Source: a virus
Lineage: Duplodnaviria > Caudoviricetes
Reading direction: 5' to 3' (one strand)
DNA length: 64,000 nucleotides
Virus record (IMG/VR): IMGVR_UViG_3300031993_000053
Coordinates: 9,502 to 73,501 of that record
Shown piece after piece: positions 2,121-60,403 of this stretch. Position numbers and translations under genes: made by a program. The notes beneath the pieces were generated by a model that searched no databases, was not told the DNA's origin, and saw only the letters and a list, made by a program, of their open reading frames with translations. The number at the start of each line of letters is the position of its first letter. Position 1 is the first letter of the stretch.

Positions 2121-2651
2121 ATGAACTTTTTAGACTTTTTAAAATCTGAAGACATGATTGTTATTCATATATATAATCGAGACTTATGTGAAAAAGTAGC
2201 AAATACTTTAAATAAACTTATTGCTGATAATCATATTGCTAAAGATATAAGAGGATTTCATAAAATTTTACAGCCCTGCTATGATGCTAGTTGGTTTGAT
2301 GATTATGAAGATAAAACTTGTTTAGCTAATACTGGAGAGTTTTGCTCTTTAGAACTTGCTAAAAATGAAGGCTATAAAATTTTTAGGATTGAAGACGTTT
2401 TTTGGAAAGATAGCAATGGTAAATTATACTTTAATGATGAAGTTAATTATGTTTATTTAAAAAATATTTGTAAAGCAATTCCTGAAGGCAAAGGCGATAA
2501 AAATTTTATGAGTGATAATGGTAAAGATAAAGAATACACACGAGTAAAAGCAATTTATACTGAAGCTGTTAATCGAGGAATTCTTACAGTTGATGAGGCG
2601 GAAGAATTATTAAATAGAGTAAAGTTAGTATTAGATGAAGTAATTTTATAA
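2121..2651 (+). CDS. hypothetical protein
   Basis: ORF track, AGGA RBS. Confidence 0.7.
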   Translation: MNFLDFLKSEDMIVIHIYNRDLCEKVANTLNKLIADNHIAKDIRGFHKILQPCYDASWFDDYEDKTCLANTGEFCSLELAKNEGYKIFRIEDVFWKDSNGKLYFNDEVNYVYLKNICKAIPEGKGDKNFMSDNGKDKEYTRVKAIYTEAVNRGILTVDEAEELLNRVKLVLDEVIL

Positions 2652-2672
2652 GTTTATTAGAAAGGAATAAAT

Positions 2673-3293
2673 ATGGATTTTAGTGATTTATCAGTAAAAA
2701 ATAAATATGCTATTTATTGTCTAAATCAAGGTGTTTATAATGATCTTGGTGAATTAGGTGAATTAGATGAATTAGATCATGGTTGGTTCAAATTAGATGA
2801 TGATAATGATTTAGTTAATCCAGAATCAACATTGCAATTTGTTTTAACTGATACAGGTAAACTTGTTACACTTGATAAAGTGAAAAAATTAATTAGTAAA
2901 GGCTATAAAATAGTATATCCAATATTAAATGATAAAGGTATACTTAATATTTTTTCATTTATTCCTTTAACTTATGAAAAGTATAGTAAATTATATAATT
3001 GTTTATATAGTTTAATTGATACTAATTATTCTCATAATATAATTAGGGTTACTTCTGTAGATGAGTTTAGATCAATTATATTGATGATTATGGATATAAG
3101 TAAAGATAAAAATACTGGAATGAAACCTGATATTATTAAACGCATGTTTGATAAATTAAATAATGGTGAAGCTATTTATATTCATATTGATAATCTTGAT
3201 GAGTATACAGATATAACAGATGTAAGTATTTATGAAGTTGATTTAGATGGAACAAATCGTTCTGATTATAAATTATATAAGGTGATAGTATGA
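2673..3293 (+). CDS. hypothetical protein
   Basis: ORF track, AGAAAGGA RBS. Confidence 0.7.
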   Translation: MDFSDLSVKNKYAIYCLNQGVYNDLGELGELDELDHGWFKLDDDNDLVNPESTLQFVLTDTGKLVTLDKVKKLISKGYKIVYPILNDKGILNIFSFIPLTYEKYSKLYNCLYSLIDTNYSHNIIRVTSVDEFRSIILMIMDISKDKNTGMKPDIIKRMFDKLNNGEAIYIHIDNLDEYTDITDVSIYEVDLDGTNRSDYKLYKVIV

Positions 3294-3580
3294 AACGATT
3301 TTTATTCGAATGCGGACATGTAAGTGAAGGTGATCATTGTAAAATTTGTGGATGCGAACGAATTCAGTTTCAGATCCATAACATCCGAGACCACCTTGAC
3401 GGTCGGCAAGCGATGTGTGGAAAGAAAATTATAAAATCAAGGTGGGACCTACCCGGGTTTGTATATAGACCAAATGAAAAATATGATTTGTTTTTGTTTG
3501 GTAATAGAGATAAAGCATTTGGAACTGGCGTAGTTTATAAAATTGGTATTGATGGAGATTCAATAAGAGAGGACAAATAA
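3290..3580 (+). CDS. small Cys-rich (Zn-ribbon-like) protein
   Basis: ECGH...CKICGC motif. Confidence 0.55.
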   Translation: MKRFLFECGHVSEGDHCKICGCERIQFQIHNIRDHLDGRQAMCGKKIIKSRWDLPGFVYRPNEKYDLFLFGNRDKAFGTGVVYKIGIDGDSIREDK

Positions 3581-5309: not shown

Positions 5310-5384
5310 AGCGGAGTAGAGGAAAGGTACCTCGTGAGACTCATAACCTCAAGGTTGGTGGTTCGAGTCCACCCTCCGCCACCA
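5310..5384 (+). tRNA. tRNA-Met (CAT), initiator-like
   Basis: Cloverleaf AGCGGAG/CTCCGCC, D-stem GAGG/CCTC, anticodon loop CTCATAA, T-loop TTCGAGT, encoded CCA; A1.C72 mismatch and A11-U24. Confidence 0.93.
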
Positions 5385-5597: not shown

Positions 5598-6170
5598 ATG
5601 GGAAATGAATTGAAGCGAACTAAATTAGGTGAATGGTTATTTAATTCAGTAAATAAAGTGAGTCTTTATATTGCATATCATAAAGTATTATTTTATATTT
5701 TATCATATACATGGGGACTAATTACAACACTATTTGGTTGGATTGTTTATTTATTTTTAAGAATATTTTTTAAAAATAAAATTCAATTAAAAGGAAAATT
5801 TTTTACAGCAAGATATATAATGTTATTTGATGAATGGGGTGGTCTTGAACTTGGCACAAATTTTATATTAGCTGGTAATATGGGAAAATATTTTACCGAG
5901 CATACAAAGTGTCATGAACTCGGCCACACTTATCAAAATGCGGCCCTCGGGCCCTTTGCTATAATATTTATCTTTATTCCTTCTGTTATACAATATTGGA
6001 TTCAGCGACTTAGAAAAGATCAATCTAAGAATAAGCCTTATGATTTAATTTGGTTTGAAGGTTCAGCAACTTATATTGGTGAAACTTTATTATCAAATTT
6101 AGAGCATAAAGATTATCATTATTATAATGAGCAATATCAATTCAATAACAATTATGGAGCAAATATATGA
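5598..6170 (+). CDS. membrane-anchored zincin-like (HExxH) protein
   Basis: N-terminal TM segment; KCHELGHTYQNAALGP; second acidic motif WFEGSA. Confidence 0.65.
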   Translation: MGNELKRTKLGEWLFNSVNKVSLYIAYHKVLFYILSYTWGLITTLFGWIVYLFLRIFFKNKIQLKGKFFTARYIMLFDEWGGLELGTNFILAGNMGKYFTEHTKCHELGHTYQNAALGPFAIIFIFIPSVIQYWIQRLRKDQSKNKPYDLIWFEGSATYIGETLLSNLEHKDYHYYNEQYQFNNNYGANI

Positions 6171-17419: not shown

Positions 17420-18242
17420 ATATTTTATTGAAGAAACTTTTGATCTTTTAACAAAAGGATTTAACGATAAAGATTTTAATGTTAGGCCACATTGGTCTGA
17501 TGGAACTCCTGCTCATACAATTAAAACTTTTTGTAGAATTAATAGATATGATTTATCAAAAGAATTTCCGATCCTTACATTAAGAAAAGCTCCATTTAAT
17601 TATGCAGTAAAAGAAATATTATGGATTTTTCAAAAAAAATCAAATAATATAAATGATCTTGATAGTCATAATTGGGATTCATGGGCAGATGAAAATGGAT
17701 CAATTGGAAAAACATATGGTTATGTAGCAGGCGAAAAATATGAATATCCAGAAGGATTAATGGACCAAGTTGATAATGTTCTTTGGTGCTTAAAAAATAG
17801 ACCAATGGATAGGCGAATGATAATTCAATTATTTAGACCAGAATATATAAAAGAATCTGGTTTGCCGCCATGCTTGTGTTCATATTTTTTTGATGTTGCT
17901 GGAGATAAATTAAATATGACTGTTATTATGCGTAGCTGTGATATGCTAAGTGCAGCAGGAGCTGGTGAATCTGATGAAATTGGAATGGCAATTTTACAGC
18001 ATATGTTTGCGCAAGTATCTAATTTAAAAGTTGGCGAATTAGTAGTTATTAAAAATAATTTTCATGTTTATGATAGGCATTTAGATATTGTTAAAAAAAT
18101 ATGTAATAATAAAGCCTATGTAGCACCAACATTTTGGATAAATCCAGAAATTAAAAATTTTTATGATTTTAAGCCTGAAGATTTTAAACTTATCGATTAT
18201 AATTATACAAAATTAGAAGAAAAAATTGAGGTAGCAATATGA
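17403..18242 (+). CDS. thyA: thymidylate synthase superfamily enzyme (N->D variant; possible dCMP (hydroxy)methylase)
   Basis: RRM, LPPC (catalytic Cys), RSCD, HVYDRH; specificity Asn position reads Asp (GAGESDEIG). Confidence 0.85.
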   Translation: MSQADKYFIEETFDLLTKGFNDKDFNVRPHWSDGTPAHTIKTFCRINRYDLSKEFPILTLRKAPFNYAVKEILWIFQKKSNNINDLDSHNWDSWADENGSIGKTYGYVAGEKYEYPEGLMDQVDNVLWCLKNRPMDRRMIIQLFRPEYIKESGLPPCLCSYFFDVAGDKLNMTVIMRSCDMLSAAGAGESDEIGMAILQHMFAQVSNLKVGELVVIKNNFHVYDRHLDIVKKICNNKAYVAPTFWINPEIKNFYDFKPEDFKLIDYNYTKLEEKIEVAI

Positions 18243-18655
18243 AAATTAAATTATTAGGTGATACTAAATGTCCTGAACGTAAAAGAAAAAATGATTGTGG
18301 TTGGGACTTTTATCTAAATGATTTTGTTTGTTTTCATAAGGGTGAAACAACAACTGTTGATACTGGCGTTTGTGTTGAGATTCCTGAAGGTTGGGCTGGA
18401 TTATTTGCATTAAGAAGCTCAATTTGTAAAACTGGTTTAACTCTTCAAAATCCATTAGTGGATAACAATTATAGAGGTGAACTTCATCTTTTAATAACGA
18501 ATAATACAGATAAAGATTTTTGTTTTTATAAGGGTGATAGAATTGCATCATTATATTGTTTTCCATACTTAACTGAAGATTTAGAAATTGTTGAAGAATT
18601 AAGTGAAACAGATCGTGGAGATAAATGGAACGGAAGTTCCAATCAGATAGCTTAG
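18239..18655 (+). CDS. dut: trimeric dUTPase family protein
   Basis: Motifs CGWDF, RSS, VDNNYRGE, GDRIASL, RG..WNGSS. Confidence 0.85.
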   Translation: MKIKLLGDTKCPERKRKNDCGWDFYLNDFVCFHKGETTTVDTGVCVEIPEGWAGLFALRSSICKTGLTLQNPLVDNNYRGELHLLITNNTDKDFCFYKGDRIASLYCFPYLTEDLEIVEELSETDRGDKWNGSSNQIA

Positions 18656-18701
18656 AGGCTCTTAGCTTCGCTAGAGCTCCTAAACTATTTATATAAAGCC
18701 A

Positions 18702-18730
18702 TTTACAAATTTGATAAAACATGATATAAT
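18702..18730 (+). promoter_or_regulatory. canonical promoter upstream of GIY-YIG/pol
   Basis: TTTACA-N17-TATAAT with TG extension. Confidence 0.8.
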
Positions 18731-18869
18731 ATTTATATAGCCAAGACACAATTAATAAATAAAGCTTTAATTATAGCATATTATGTGAATGTGTCTTGGC
18801 GGATAAAACCATATAATATGCTATCATTAAAGCTTTATTTTTAATTTATAGAAAGGTTATATAAATATT

Positions 18870-19715
18870 ATGGAAAAAAATGGTTGCTACGTTTATAAAC
18901 ATACTTGTATAATTACTGGAAAATCATATATTGGTTGGTGTTCAAGAAATCCAAAATATCGTTGGGGTAAAAATGGTTCAAATTATTTAGTAAAAAGTGG
19001 GGATAGATTATTTGACCATAAAAAATTTGCTCCTGCAATTTTAAAATATGGATGGAATAATTTTACACATGATATACTATTTTATAATCTTACTGAAAAA
19101 GAAGCATTAGAAAAAGAAAAAGAAATGATAATAAAATATGATTCTTTTAAAAATGGTTATAATAGCACTCTTGGTGGTGATGGTAGTACAGGTAGAAATC
19201 ATACAGAAGAATCTAAAAATAAAGTATCTGCAACAAAACTTAAATCGAGTAAAATTATTTATTGTTATAATAAATTTGGTGAATTAGTTTGCGCTATGAA
19301 AGGTTATAAACAAATTGCAAAATATTTAAATTTACCAAGCGGAGGAATTGCTGATTGTTGTATAAAAGTTAAAGACCAACATAATTCACATAGAACAGCA
19401 TATGGATATGTATTTGCAAATATAAAATTAACTAAAAATGAAATCAAAAAACGATATGAAAGTTATAAAAAGAAATTTGATTGTATTTATATGTATGATA
19501 TTATTAGTGAAAAATTAATAAATAAATTTTATTCCTATGAAGAAGCGATTAAAAATTCTAATATATGTAGAAGTAGTATATCAGGGTGTTGTAATGGTAG
19601 AACTCGTTTTGTAAAAAATTATATTTTTTCATTTAAAGAATTATCTAAAAATGAATTATTATTAAGAAAAAAATATTTTAATATAAAACATAAAAGGGAG
19701 TTGAATAATTATTGA
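18870..19715 (+). CDS. free-standing GIY-YIG homing endonuclease with NUMOD repeats
   Basis: CYVY...SYIG...R...; GYNSTLGGDG; NUMOD3 GRNHTEESKNKVS; two NUMOD1-like repeats. Confidence 0.92.
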   Translation: MEKNGCYVYKHTCIITGKSYIGWCSRNPKYRWGKNGSNYLVKSGDRLFDHKKFAPAILKYGWNNFTHDILFYNLTEKEALEKEKEMIIKYDSFKNGYNSTLGGDGSTGRNHTEESKNKVSATKLKSSKIIYCYNKFGELVCAMKGYKQIAKYLNLPSGGIADCCIKVKDQHNSHRTAYGYVFANIKLTKNEIKKRYESYKKKFDCIYMYDIISEKLINKFYSYEEAIKNSNICRSSISGCCNGRTRFVKNYIFSFKELSKNELLLRKKYFNIKHKRELNNY

Positions 19716-21521
19716 ATTTAATTATCTATGATTTCGAAGTGTTTAAACGAGCGTGTTTGCTAGGAACAATTATAGTAAAAGAAACGGGAGAAGAAAAATT
19801 ATTTCAAACATGGGATTTAAATACGATCAAACAATTTTATTTAGATTATAAAGATGATTCTATTTTTGTTGGATGGAATAGTAAATATTATGATGATTTA
19901 ATTTTAGAAGCAATTATTAAAAATAAAGATCCATTTGAAATATCTAAAAAAATTATCGAAAATCATGAATCATTGTGGTGTAATTTAAAATTTTATACAT
20001 ATGATGTTATGAATACTGGATTTGCTAGCCAGATATCATTAAAATTAACTGAACTTATATCAGGCGATTCTGTTGAAACAACAGAAGTTGATTTTAATCT
20101 TGATAGGGATTTAACGGAAGAAGAAAAAAAATTAACTGAAAAATATAACCAAGCTGATTTAAAAAAGACCTTTTATAATTTTAAAAAAATATATGATCGT
20201 TTTGAATTAAGACTTGGAATTATTAATGATTGGAATCTTAATTTAATGAAATGTTTAAACATGACTGGTGCTCAAATAGCAGCAGAAGTGCTTCAAGCAA
20301 AAAAAGATCCATCATTAGAATTTAAACCAGTCAAACCAATTTTATATGATAATTTACAAGTTGAAAATAAACAGGCTTTAAATTATTATTTAGAAGAAAA
20401 ATTTAGAATTGGTAACTATTTTGAAACAATAAAAATTGGAAATGCTGAGTTAACTCTTGGCGCAGGAGGCTTACACCAAGCCATTAAGAAGTGTTATTAT
20501 GACCGCTTAATGTACTTGGATGTGCGGCTTCGGCCGCAAATGAGTTAGCGGATATTATAATTTAATAGAAATTAATTTTGATTTGTTTTCAAGAACTATC
20601 TCAGAAGAAGGCAAACGTCGTTATAAAATGATGTATGATCAACAAATAGAACTTAAAAAAATTAATCCAGATTCACCTAAGCGTAAACAATTTAAAACAA
20701 TTTTGTTATCTGTTTTTGGTGCACAATCTTTTGAGGGATCTGCATTTTATGACCCATATATTGGTAAATTAATTCCAATAACAGGCGAATTATTTATGAT
20801 TGACTTTCTTGAAAAAATTCACCATTTATGTACAATAGTTCAAACAAACTCTGATGGTGCAATGATTAAACCTAATTCTGATGAAGCTGAAAAAGAAATA
20901 TTAAATATTTTAAAAAGTTGGCTAGATCGAACAAAGTTTGTAATTAAACCAAAATATATTTATGACCTTGTACAAAGAGATGTCAATAACTATGTTTATA
21001 GAGATGAAAAAGGAAATCTTGAAGTTAAGGGTGAAGCATTAAAAAATTATAATTTTGATGATAAAGAATATTCAGCAGGAACAATATTTAATTGTAAAGA
21101 GCCTTCAATAATTGCTAAAGGTGTTGTTGATTATTTAATGTATGATATATCACCTGAAGAAACTGTTGATAAATATAAAGAAGATTTAAGATTATTTCAA
21201 TATGCTTGTAAAAAAGGTGGATATAATTATTTAACATATGATACTGTTTATTATCCATCGCGAGAAACTAGTTCATATGAAATACAAAGCCCGAGTCGTG
21301 TTTTTGCTTATAATTCTAATACTGAAGCTGGTATGGTTTATAAGCACGGTATAAATAAAAAATCTGGTAAAATATCTCAAGCTAAAGTATCTAATTTACC
21401 AGATAATGTATTTATTTATAATGATAGTATTATTGGAAAGTATGAAGAATTAAAAGATAAAATCGATTGGCAATATTATGTTGATCGTATATATGAAAAA
21501 ATAGAAAATTTTATATCATAA
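19712..21521 (+). CDS. family B DNA polymerase, interrupted in motif A by a 22-nt insert
   Basis: Exo motifs YDFE, GWNSKYYD, YNQAD; removing 22 nt restores LDVSGYYNLIEINFDLFSRT; motif B KTILLSVFG; motif C QTNSDG; reconstructed length 595 aa. Confidence 0.88.
20522..20546 (+). other. candidate translational bypass element (GUG take-off, GUU landing, UUCG hairpin)
   Basis: GAT GTG|CGGCTTCGGCCGCAAATGA GTT|AGC GGA TAT; stem TGCGGC/GCCGCA. Confidence 0.65.
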
Positions 21522-21533
21522 GGAGAATTAAAA

Positions 21534-21926
21534 ATGGCAAAAATTAATTTAGAATCAAAAATGGCCAAATTGTATGAGTTACAAACTCAATTAAAACGTG
21601 ATTTAGAAGATCACAAAAAATTAGTAAAACAATATAAATTATTAATTGATATTGTTACAAAATCAAATAAAAGTAAAGATTTACCAAAAGATTTTTTAGA
21701 AGCTATTAAAAATTATTGTAAACAATCTGATGAAATTGTTAAAAAGATTAATTTACGTTTAACTTATATTGCAACATTAACAGATTGGTATGAAAAGAAA
21801 GATGAAAAATCTGTTATTGTTGATCAAGTTGTAACACTAACTTTTGAATCTCTTGGTATTATGGATGAACCTGTTCCTGCTCAAGAGCCAGCCGAGGAAC
21901 AACCAATTGAGGAAAAAGCTGAGTAA
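21534..21926 (+). CDS. hypothetical coiled-coil protein
   Basis: ORF track, AAGGAG RBS. Confidence 0.7.
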   Translation: MAKINLESKMAKLYELQTQLKRDLEDHKKLVKQYKLLIDIVTKSNKSKDLPKDFLEAIKNYCKQSDEIVKKINLRLTYIATLTDWYEKKDEKSVIVDQVVTLTFESLGIMDEPVPAQEPAEEQPIEEKAE

Positions 21927-21940
21927 ATTCTCAGCTTTTT
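21913..21940 (+). terminator. intrinsic terminator
   Basis: AAAAAGCTGAG-taaatt-CTCAGCTTTTT. Confidence 0.8.
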
Positions 21941-21941
21941 A

Positions 21942-21970
21942 TTTACTTTTTTGTTGATTAGTGGTATAAT
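21942..21970 (+). promoter_or_regulatory. canonical promoter for terminase
   Basis: TTTACT-N17-TATAAT with TG extension. Confidence 0.75.
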
Positions 21971-22147
21971 ATATTTATAGGAAGAAGAAAAAAATAGAAA
22001 AGGACTAAATAAAGCTATAATTAGAGTGTTATCAAATCAAGGACTTTTTTCTATTCAAATCTTCCTTTCTATATGAATATATTATTCCTGCTAATTATAC
22101 AACATAGATTTGATAACACCCTAATTATAGTTTTTTAATTTACTTAT

Positions 22148-60284: not shown

Positions 60285-60403
60285 GCTAATAGGGGCCCCG
60301 CCCCTTAGCGAATAGTTAACGGCTTAAATCATATATAAATATATGATATAATATATGTGTAAATTAGTGAATAATAAAATCTTAAGAAAGGGTAGGTAAA
60401 TGT

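Follow-up and report, generated by a model that had tools for sequence, protein, structure and literature searches.

A family B DNA polymerase (PolB) gene that is interrupted by 22 nucleotides (nt) within its catalytic motif A is encountered in a 64,000-nt stretch of DNA from an uncultured phage, hereafter the window, which spans bases 9502-73501 of a 73.5-kb IMG/VR virus record (IMGVR_UViG_3300031993_000053) rated complete by CheckV. The interruption is best read as endonuclease-linked programmed translational bypassing, in which ribosomes would hop over the 22-nt gap of a working polymerase gene, and which would be analogous rather than homologous to the gene 60/MobA cassette of phage T4. 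We hold this reading with moderate confidence. Bypassing had been put forward when only the letters of the window had been read (the original prediction), and that interpretation is supported by the comparative evidence set out below, from which we infer the hop itself.

The interrupted polymerase gene

The polymerase gene consists of two parts.

19712-20524, + strand: PolB part 1 (271 codons; from the Exo I DxE to the catalytic Asp-Val of motif A), matching positions 53-343 of the phrog_1252 DNA polymerase profile (E 2e-38)
20547-21521, + strand: PolB part 2 (324 codons plus stop; the SGYYNL rest of motif A, motifs B and C, and the thumb), matching positions 356-651 of the phrog_1252 profile (E 3e-44)

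Both halves match consecutive stretches of a single PHROG DNA-polymerase family. The first lies in an open reading frame (ORF) of 278 amino acids (aa) with a TTG start (ORF A, 19712-20548), while the C-terminal frame extends to 21521. Deleting the 22 nt joins 271 and 324 codons into 595, which bears out the 595-aa PolB that the original prediction had restored in the same manner.

Assignment to family B rests on a profile built from 22 intact homologues, which matches the PolBs of solved structure from Thermococcus, E. coli Pol II, and Pol alpha and epsilon (E 6e-9 to 1e-5). The profile was required for these structure matches, as phmmer of the polymerase of one intact relative (L002) against the PDB gave none. 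The interrupted motif aligns in this profile with YLDFRSLYPS, the classical PolB motif A, and the insert is therefore placed one residue past the catalytic Asp. In addition to this similarity to solved PolBs, the family has an Exo I DxE, a motif A of the form DxxSLYPS, a motif B resembling KxxxNSxYG, and a motif C of the form xTDG/S; its invariant polymerase residues are D7, E9, D270, Y275, and N372-T-D374. A Pfam search with the two halves gave no match, and PF00136 matches three distant members of the polymerase family. Neither a family-A polymerase nor a second copy of phrog_1252 was found in the 73.5-kb genome.

Anatomy of the insert

The insert and its immediate surroundings contain the following elements.

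20525-20546, + strand: 22-nt coding gap including the landing codon, missing from all intact homologues
20522-20524, + strand: proposed take-off codon GUG (Val), rare (2.2 per 1000), the last two bases of which open the hairpin stem
20525-20527, + strand: 'hungry' codon CGG, next to be decoded in the A site by a ribosome with GUG in its P site; CGG occurs once more at 20531-20533
20523-20538, + strand: 6-bp stem with a C(UUCG)G tetraloop cap (U-GCGGC-UUCG-GCCGC-A; minimum free energy -11.2 kcal/mol)
20541-20543, + strand: TGA that closes the +1 frame until just before the landing codon, as read in the sequence
20544-20546, + strand: proposed landing codon GUU, the first GUN triplet past the take-off codon and the codon most used for Val (33.5 per 1000)
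20546-20548, + strand: TAG that ends frame 0 for non-bypassing ribosomes, as read in the sequence

Frame 0 reads TTG GAT GTG CGG CTT CGG CCG CAA ATG AGT TAG, and the +1 frame opens at GTT 20544, to be followed by AGC GGA TAT TAT AAT. Flanked as it is by GTG and GTT, the insert can slide by up to 3 nt in its placement. The original prediction had described these codons, with frame 0 stopping at TAG 20546 and the +1 frame closed by TGA 20541 and opening at GTT; it had also described the 6-bp C(UUCG)G hairpin, the take-off GUG with its synonymous landing GUU, and the two rare CGG codons. All are present. The C(UUCG)G hairpin element occurs only once in the 73.5-kb genome, and a search of 18600-21600 with Rfam at a permissive threshold found no intron or other RNA family.

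The Ser codon just past the gap is AGC in the window and TCN in all relatives. The sequence AGCGG (20547-20551) can pair with CCGCU (20503-20507), and UGAGU (20541-20545) with ACUUG (20514-20518), so that a longer stem would surround the hairpin. In a 91-nt fold, this longer helix (20503-20518/20541-20551) is only marginally better than shuffles (z -1.75), and it is not used as support here.

Intact and interrupted relatives

In each of three relatives in IMG/VR (L002, L003, and L004, with 70, 63, and 42% identity), one ORF of 588-602 aa runs through LDVSGYYNL without a break. Given that these relatives carry one uninterrupted ORF, the indel is exactly 22 nt, and the insertion in motif A that had been claimed from the letters alone is borne out. 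Motif A was surveyed in 80 IMG/VR loci and about 80 metagenome or genome loci. In about 140 related loci, down to about 26% identity, it has neither a gap nor any variation in length (DVSGYYNL, DVSSYYPS, DVASLYPS). The alignment with homologous phage polymerases, which had been suggested as a check for a clean 22-nt indel, thus gives the expected result.

Searching for proteins sized like each half led to further lineages with an interrupted gene. The closest one, with 84-88% protein identity to the window, is represented by two assemblies (L005 and L090, which have 23 differences in 3,245 nt) and has a net insert of 5 nt at the same codon (GAC GTC CG GTT TCG GGA). In L007 (65% identity), there is an 8-nt insert, again at this codon (GAC GTT TCC TGA AT TCT GGT). 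The P0003/P0011 lineage, found on contigs of about 70 kb (ENA ERZ28633346 for P0003), has a first ORF that ends in …LDVS-stop and a second ORF in frame +2. This corresponds to about 14 extra nt as judged from gene coordinates only, and the P0003 form is present on three contigs. What appears to be new here, from comparison of these sequences, is the occurrence of different frame-breaking inserts (5, 8, and about 14 nt) at one codon in close relatives.

The inserts differ in length and share a codon pattern. The take-off codons are rare, with 2.2 per 1000 codons for GTG in the window, 2.3 for GTC in L005, and 0.6 for TCC in L007. The landing codons are common synonyms of the same box (33.5 per 1000 for GTT and 16.9 for TCT), and are the first such triplet downstream in each of the three lineages for which DNA is available. 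The take-off and landing pairs are GUG/GUU in the window, GUC/GUU in L005, and UCC/UCU in L007, and the codon right after take-off is CGG in the window and L005, and UGA in L007. A hop from take-off to landing codon gives the exact consensus protein in all three. The frame relation is +1 for the 22-nt insert and +2 for those of 5, 8, and about 14 nt, with the protein conserved. Differing frame relations together with a conserved protein fit re-pairing after a slide, and not a fixed slip by +1 or -1.

In a tree of the C-terminal halves, the interrupted lineages are mixed with the intact L002, L003, and L174 in one clade (support 100/99). Inserts thus arose or spread several times. The inserts of the window and L005 have GTS CGG YTT CGG in common and, therefore, the interruption appears to predate the split between these two lineages.

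Insertions at this position are also encountered further away. The distant relatives L060, L061, and L063 (26% identity) have an insert of about 0.8 kb at the same Asp-Val codon; in L061, it lies at 2650-3500 and contains a GIY-YIG ORF (2691-3401). By this comparison, endonuclease-associated insertions have a hotspot just after the Asp-Val of motif A. The L061-type insert has the look of an intron with a homing endonuclease. A group I intron is not supported by Rfam, which found no such intron or other family in L061 at the gathering threshold, or in its insert at a permissive threshold.

Four other loci (L006, L008, L009, and L173) had been candidates for further split genes from their ORF calls and were rejected, as all of them read through motif A. 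L006 has an in-frame stop (726-728) where homologues have Leu (…PRIYET*QIKNKDV…). The coverage there is 3.3x, and this stop may be a nonsense mutation, an error, or a case of readthrough. In the short contigs L173 (1-500) and L008 (1000-1330), unrelated sequence stands in place of the N-terminal part of the polymerase, and this may represent either chimeric assembly or real rearrangement; in L173, a membrane-protein-like ORF reaches to about 15 codons before motif A.

Selection on the interrupted gene

Synonymous divergence (dS) between the window and L005 is 0.62-0.76, and the ratio of non-synonymous to synonymous divergence (dN/dS) is 0.15 for part 1 and 0.16 for part 2. The halves are of equal length in the two lineages, with no other stop or frameshift over 1.8 kb. 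By these measures, the interrupted gene is under purifying selection in both halves. Over such a distance, a dead gene would have lost its open frame and its constraint, which makes a pseudogene unlikely. Nucleotide identity to L005 in a sliding window revealed no special conservation and no conversion tract around the junction.

The codons just past the gap are informative. They encode the same SGYYNL in the window, L005, and L007, with synonymous differences at three to five of the six codons, while the first ATG, GTG, or TTG in the post-gap frame is codon 13 in the window, codon 28 in L005, and codon 8 in L007. Since SGYYNL is conserved synonymously ahead of any start codon, it is likely to be translated by ribosomes arriving from upstream rather than by internal initiation. 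In the window, these ribosomes must enter the downstream frame at 20544-20547, because TGA closes the +1 frame up to GTT.

Codon usage and the genetic code

The window has a G+C content of about 27% and uses the standard bacterial code (table 11), with TGA terminating 12 of its 64 long ORFs. The Mollicutes code (table 4, TGA read as Trp) was considered and rejected; apart from the 12 genes that end in TGA, the gain in ORF length under table 4 amounts to only a few codons, although the second ORF (ORF B) would gain an ATG at 20520. The original prediction had noted that CGG is unassigned in some Mollicutes and had drawn a parallel with byps and their avoided codon, and neither idea holds for CGG here. 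CGG accounts for 4 of 18,316 codons in the window (0.22 per 1000, tied as the rarest sense codon). Two of the four are inside the insert, and the other two agree with the earlier caveat that the codon is also used elsewhere. It is read as ordinary Arg at other positions of the window and of L005, so that, from its usage, CGG is here a slow 'hungry' codon that can be decoded rather than an avoided one. The only tRNA gene in the window is one for tRNA-Met (CAT, 5310-5384), and thus neither a tRNA-Val nor a tRNA-Arg gene is encoded.

The homing endonuclease next to the polymerase gene

The region immediately upstream of the polymerase gene is arranged as follows.

18239-18655, + strand: dUTPase gene (dut; phrog_135, E 1e-30), which lies directly 5' of the polymerase gene in the relatives L002, L003, L004, and L005
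18656-19711, + strand: cassette of about 1.06 kb with the endonuclease gene, between dut and the polymerase gene, missing in relatives; the distance from the dut stop to the polymerase start is 1,056 nt here versus 2-12 nt in L002, L003, and L005
18870-19715, + strand: free-standing GIY-YIG homing endonuclease gene (281 aa), the TGA stop of which overlaps the TTG start of the polymerase gene; matches to PHROG homing-endonuclease families with E 3e-21 to 4e-10

The endonuclease protein itself has no Pfam match at E 0.01, and its homologues (at most 55% identity) carry PF01541 GIY-YIG, NUMOD, PF07453, and PF22083. The P0003 lineage, itself with an insert in motif A, has an orthologue with 66% identity (P0056) at the same place. 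Another, with 55% identity (P0057), is found in L174, directly upstream of the polymerase gene in L174-176. In the 5-nt lineage, L090 has a GIY-YIG/NUMOD paralogue of 337 aa and 38% identity (1004-2017), 0.45 kb upstream of the polymerase gene. This paralogue sits between thymidylate synthase and dUTPase, and not between dUTPase and the polymerase.

The presence of the endonuclease between dut and the polymerase gene is therefore polymorphic, being seen in the window, the P0003 lineage, and L174, and not in L002, L003, L004, or L005. In a local tblastn search covering the fetched flanks of the polymerase gene in 154 loci, relatives of the endonuclease were found near the polymerase only in lineages with an indel (the window, L005/L090, L174-176, and the P0056 lineage).

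The indel of the L174 group is of a different kind. It consists of one extra nt in a run of five T within the invariant Exo I D-x-E (L174:1242-1300), and is identical in L175 and L176, that is, in three assemblies from three samples. The polymerase gene of L174 starts with TTG AAT ATA ATT ATA TTC GAT TTT TGA, after which the +1 frame continues with GAA GTG TTT AAA. Here, UUU_UGA has the feature of a shifty stop, in which a stop codon follows a P-site codon whose tRNA can also pair in the +1 frame. The Exo I site of L174 is thus either a candidate for +1 frameshifting or a restart that would lose exonuclease residues.

A proposed mechanism and the points against it

In the proposed mechanism, a ribosome with GUG in the P site would meet the very rare CGG in the A site and decode it slowly. 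The C(UUCG)G hairpin could form at the A site during this slow decoding, and the peptidyl-tRNA on the take-off GUG would then re-pair at the landing GUU, with decoding resumed at AGC. The product of the hop would be the normal LDV-SGYYNL polymerase of about 69 kDa, with a junction that would read …MYLDVSGYYNLIEINFDLFSR. Ribosomes that fail to bypass would stop at TAG in frame 0, or at TGA in the +1 frame.

It is tempting to see the insert as part of a contest with the GIY-YIG homing endonuclease that is lodged just upstream of the polymerase gene. Micro-inserts that break the frame within catalytic motifs of the polymerase would probably destroy the target of the nuclease, and would be tolerated since they can be hopped. 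In this reading, the insert would protect the genome from the GIY-YIG endonuclease. A broader proposal is that the PolB genes of this clade hold a family of endonuclease-driven 'savior' micro-inserts (1, 5, 8, about 14, and 22 nt), which are decoded by ordinary bacterial ribosomes through hopping of flexible length. To this we would assign slightly less than an even chance. Such hopping would need little beyond a take-off codon that is rare and weakly paired, a codon after it that is hungry or a stop, and, further downstream, the nearest common codon that matches. For long gaps, a C(UUCG)G hairpin would be added.

Several points weigh against programmed bypassing. GUG and GUU differ in their third base (G or U), so that one tRNA-Val with a modified U34 must read both. 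A tRNA-Val of this kind, reading G- and U-ending codons, is usual in low-GC Gram-positives, and one tRNA-Val would presumably read both codons here. The efficiency of hops of 5-22 nt without the gene 60 apparatus may be low. The energy of the hairpin is unexceptional when compared with shuffles of the same GC-rich stretch (z -0.94), and any significance it has therefore comes from its context and not from its fold energy; the 5- and 8-nt inserts have no hairpin upon folding. There is no mini Shine-Dalgarno sequence (GAG, GGG, GGA, or AGG) 5-7 nt before the landing codon, where the triplets are CCG, CGC, and GCA. The upstream peptide (…AIKKCYYDRLMYLDV) is ordinary conserved polymerase sequence that is present in intact relatives, with no dedicated nascent-peptide signal evident. 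L174 has the endonuclease but an intact motif A, so that the nuclease does not require a motif A insert beside it. Finally, GIY-YIG enzymes make staggered cuts with 2-nt overhangs, and the flanking GT..GT and TC..TC could for this reason be target duplications. The matched codons could then be a by-product of a 2-nt duplication, without selection for landing.

Alternative explanations

The downstream frame could also be entered by a +1 frameshift at the end of the insert (AGU_UAG, with AGU in the P site). The gap would then be translated as RLRPQMS, adding seven residues after the Asp-Val, as the original prediction correctly noted. The sole overlap of the two frames is the single codon between TGA 20541 and TAG 20546, with a stop in the A site as in the shift sites of prfB and antizyme, and a hairpin that re-forms behind the ribosome could favour its forward movement. 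However, tRNA-Ser on AGU cannot re-pair with GUU, and the window thus lacks the shifty-stop feature of the prfB type; no Shine-Dalgarno-like stimulator is present either. Seven residues inserted one residue past the catalytic Asp are unlikely to be tolerated in a motif that has no indel in about 140 loci. Moreover, the gap peptide is not conserved (RLRPQMS in the window versus RFRDTIIL in L005), and in the sister lineages the shifts would have to be -1, with no slippery heptamer present, and would add two or three different residues. We regard such a frameshift as improbable. Bypassing would spare the polymerase these extra residues. It is also improbable that no recoding takes place, and that the gene is a recently inactivated pseudogene bearing a nuclease or repair scar, or else encodes two polypeptides that assemble as in some split phage and archaeal PolBs. 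Frame-breaking indels are the expected outcome of error-prone repair of a nuclease cut, the gene caller gives two ORFs, and split, endonuclease-associated gp43 genes exist in T4-like phages. Against a pseudogene stand the dN/dS of 0.15-0.16 at a dS of about 0.7 for the window and L005, both of them interrupted and with insert sequence in common, and the lack of a second defect in 1.8 kb. Against two polypeptides, the C-terminal piece has no conserved start codon, yet the SGYYNL ahead of its first possible start is kept synonymously. A split would also part the catalytic Asp from the steric-gate Tyr within one motif, in line with the original argument that split expression would sever it. Among the polymerase families searched (family A and phrog_1252), no other polymerase was found in the genome.

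Removal of the 22 nt before translation, by some RNA cleavage and ligation or through a heterogeneous DNA population, is very unlikely. The distant relative L061 does have an intron-like, GIY-YIG-containing insert of 0.8 kb at the same codon, but 22 nt, and still less 5 or 8 nt, are too few for a self-splicing intron. The Rfam searches described above found no intron family in either sequence, and a flanking repeat of 2-3 nt cannot support precise excision. An assembly or sequencing artefact is also very unlikely, slightly more so. The source is a single metagenomic contig, but a related interruption at the same codon occurs in the sister lineage in two independent assemblies (L005 and L090), and the P0003 form is on three contigs. 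The insert is unlike a homopolymer error, and the same pair of ORFs is found on a record from a 73,521-bp contig.

Comparison with known bypassing systems

Programmed bypassing was described for gene 60 of phage T4, where 50 nt are bypassed in a MobA/MobE homing-endonuclease element, and where the insert travels with MobA and protects the genome from nicking (Huang 1988; Bonocora 2011; bioRxiv 10.1101/2022.08.31.505936). Natural gene 60 cassettes have wobble-matched codons, UAG, UGA, or the hungry AGG in the A site (AGG taking the place of a stop), UUCG or GNRA loops, an AU-rich 3' part of the gap without premature landing triplets, and, in one clade, a gap of 20 nt (bioRxiv 10.1101/2022.08.31.505936).

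The resemblance of the polymerase insert to this system extends to many features. In both cases, a frame-breaking non-coding insert is found in an essential replication gene near a free-standing homing endonuclease. In either system, the take-off codon is matched by the landing codon, is followed by a poorly decoded codon in the A site, and lies in the 5' arm of a stem capped by C(UUCG)G, although the 6-bp stem here is much shorter than the 28-base stem-loop of T4. The AU-rich 3' part of the gap, the lack of a premature landing triplet, and a non-bypassed product that is cut off are likewise common to both. There are also clear differences. The insert is in motif A of PolB, rather than in the Toprim of a topoisomerase (Topo2L, gene 39/60), and the nuclease is of the GIY-YIG/NUMOD type, in contrast to the HNH MobA, with no sequence homology. 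The homing endonuclease gene leaves the host gene undivided and lies 0.8 kb from the insert, whereas nuclease and insert are within the same 1.1-kb element in T4. Unlike gene 60, the polymerase has no mini Shine-Dalgarno sequence and no dedicated N-terminal extension peptide, and the gaps of 5-14 nt in its sister lineages have no hairpins. From its sequence, the polymerase insert is thus an analogue, and not a member, of the gene 60/MobA family.

A second parallel is provided by the byps of Magnusiomyces capitatus mitochondria, which are outlined as GC-rich hairpin inserts in an AT-rich genome, with a hard-to-decode sense codon in the A site, wobble-matched landing, and precise restoration of the protein (Lang 2014; Nosek 2015). 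According to the same outlines, byps are present as 81 copies of 27-55 nt, spread as GC-cluster mobile elements, and have an A-site codon without a tRNA (Lang 2014; Nosek 2015). In contrast, there is one copy per genome here, with a decodable CGG, a bacterial translation system, and a link to a homing endonuclease.

The 5- and 8-nt forms (GUC CG GUU and UCC UGA AU UCU) resemble the stop-hops and hungry-codon hops with P-site re-pairing that were outlined for E. coli (Weiss 1987; Gallant & Lindsley 1998). The 'savior indel' concept (Atkins 2016, PMC5009743) is matched as well, in that recoding at a low level would rescue a protective indel. Unlike these short hops and savior indels, which are synthetic, low-level, or drug-selected, the hop in question would be the sole route to an essential replicase and would have been kept over a dS of about 0.7. 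There is also a likeness to the phage polymerases that are split or interrupted by introns or inteins, in that mobile elements home to the most conserved motifs, and the endonuclease-containing insert of L061 is at exactly this codon. Those polymerases rely on splicing or on separate subunits, whereas a 22-nt insert can do neither.

For bacterial systems, published programmed bypassing goes back to a single homologous element, the T4 gene 60/MobA cassette of topoisomerase genes, and a survey from 2022 states that nothing similar had been reported for other phages (bioRxiv 10.1101/2022.08.31.505936). What is distinctive here is the hairpin, the sense hungry codon, and the series of 5, 8, 14, and 22 nt at a single codon. 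If bypassing is borne out, the polymerase would be an independent case that differs from gene 60 in the essential gene concerned, the nuclease family, the use of a sense codon as the hungry codon, and the much shorter gap. It would thus reveal which of the signals are indispensable, and the gaps of 5, 8, and about 14 nt in the sister lineages offer a natural experiment on this question. It would lend weight to the view that such inserts originate as a defence against homing endonucleases. Under the broader proposal of a family of micro-inserts, bypassing would be a general, repeatedly evolved answer to nuclease attack and not an oddity of T4, with hops graded in nature from 5 nt to a hairpin-assisted 22 nt. 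A confirmed bypass would also be a warning to annotators, since 'split' or 'frameshifted' polymerase genes of metagenomic phages may be intact.

Other features of the window

A blastn search of 19000-22000 against 50,697 phage records gave no match. Apart from the insert, the window has GC-rich clusters only at 5938-5956 and 60289-60310, neither of which breaks a gene. The first is in-frame coding sequence for a 190-aa protein with an HELGH motif, and the second is intergenic.

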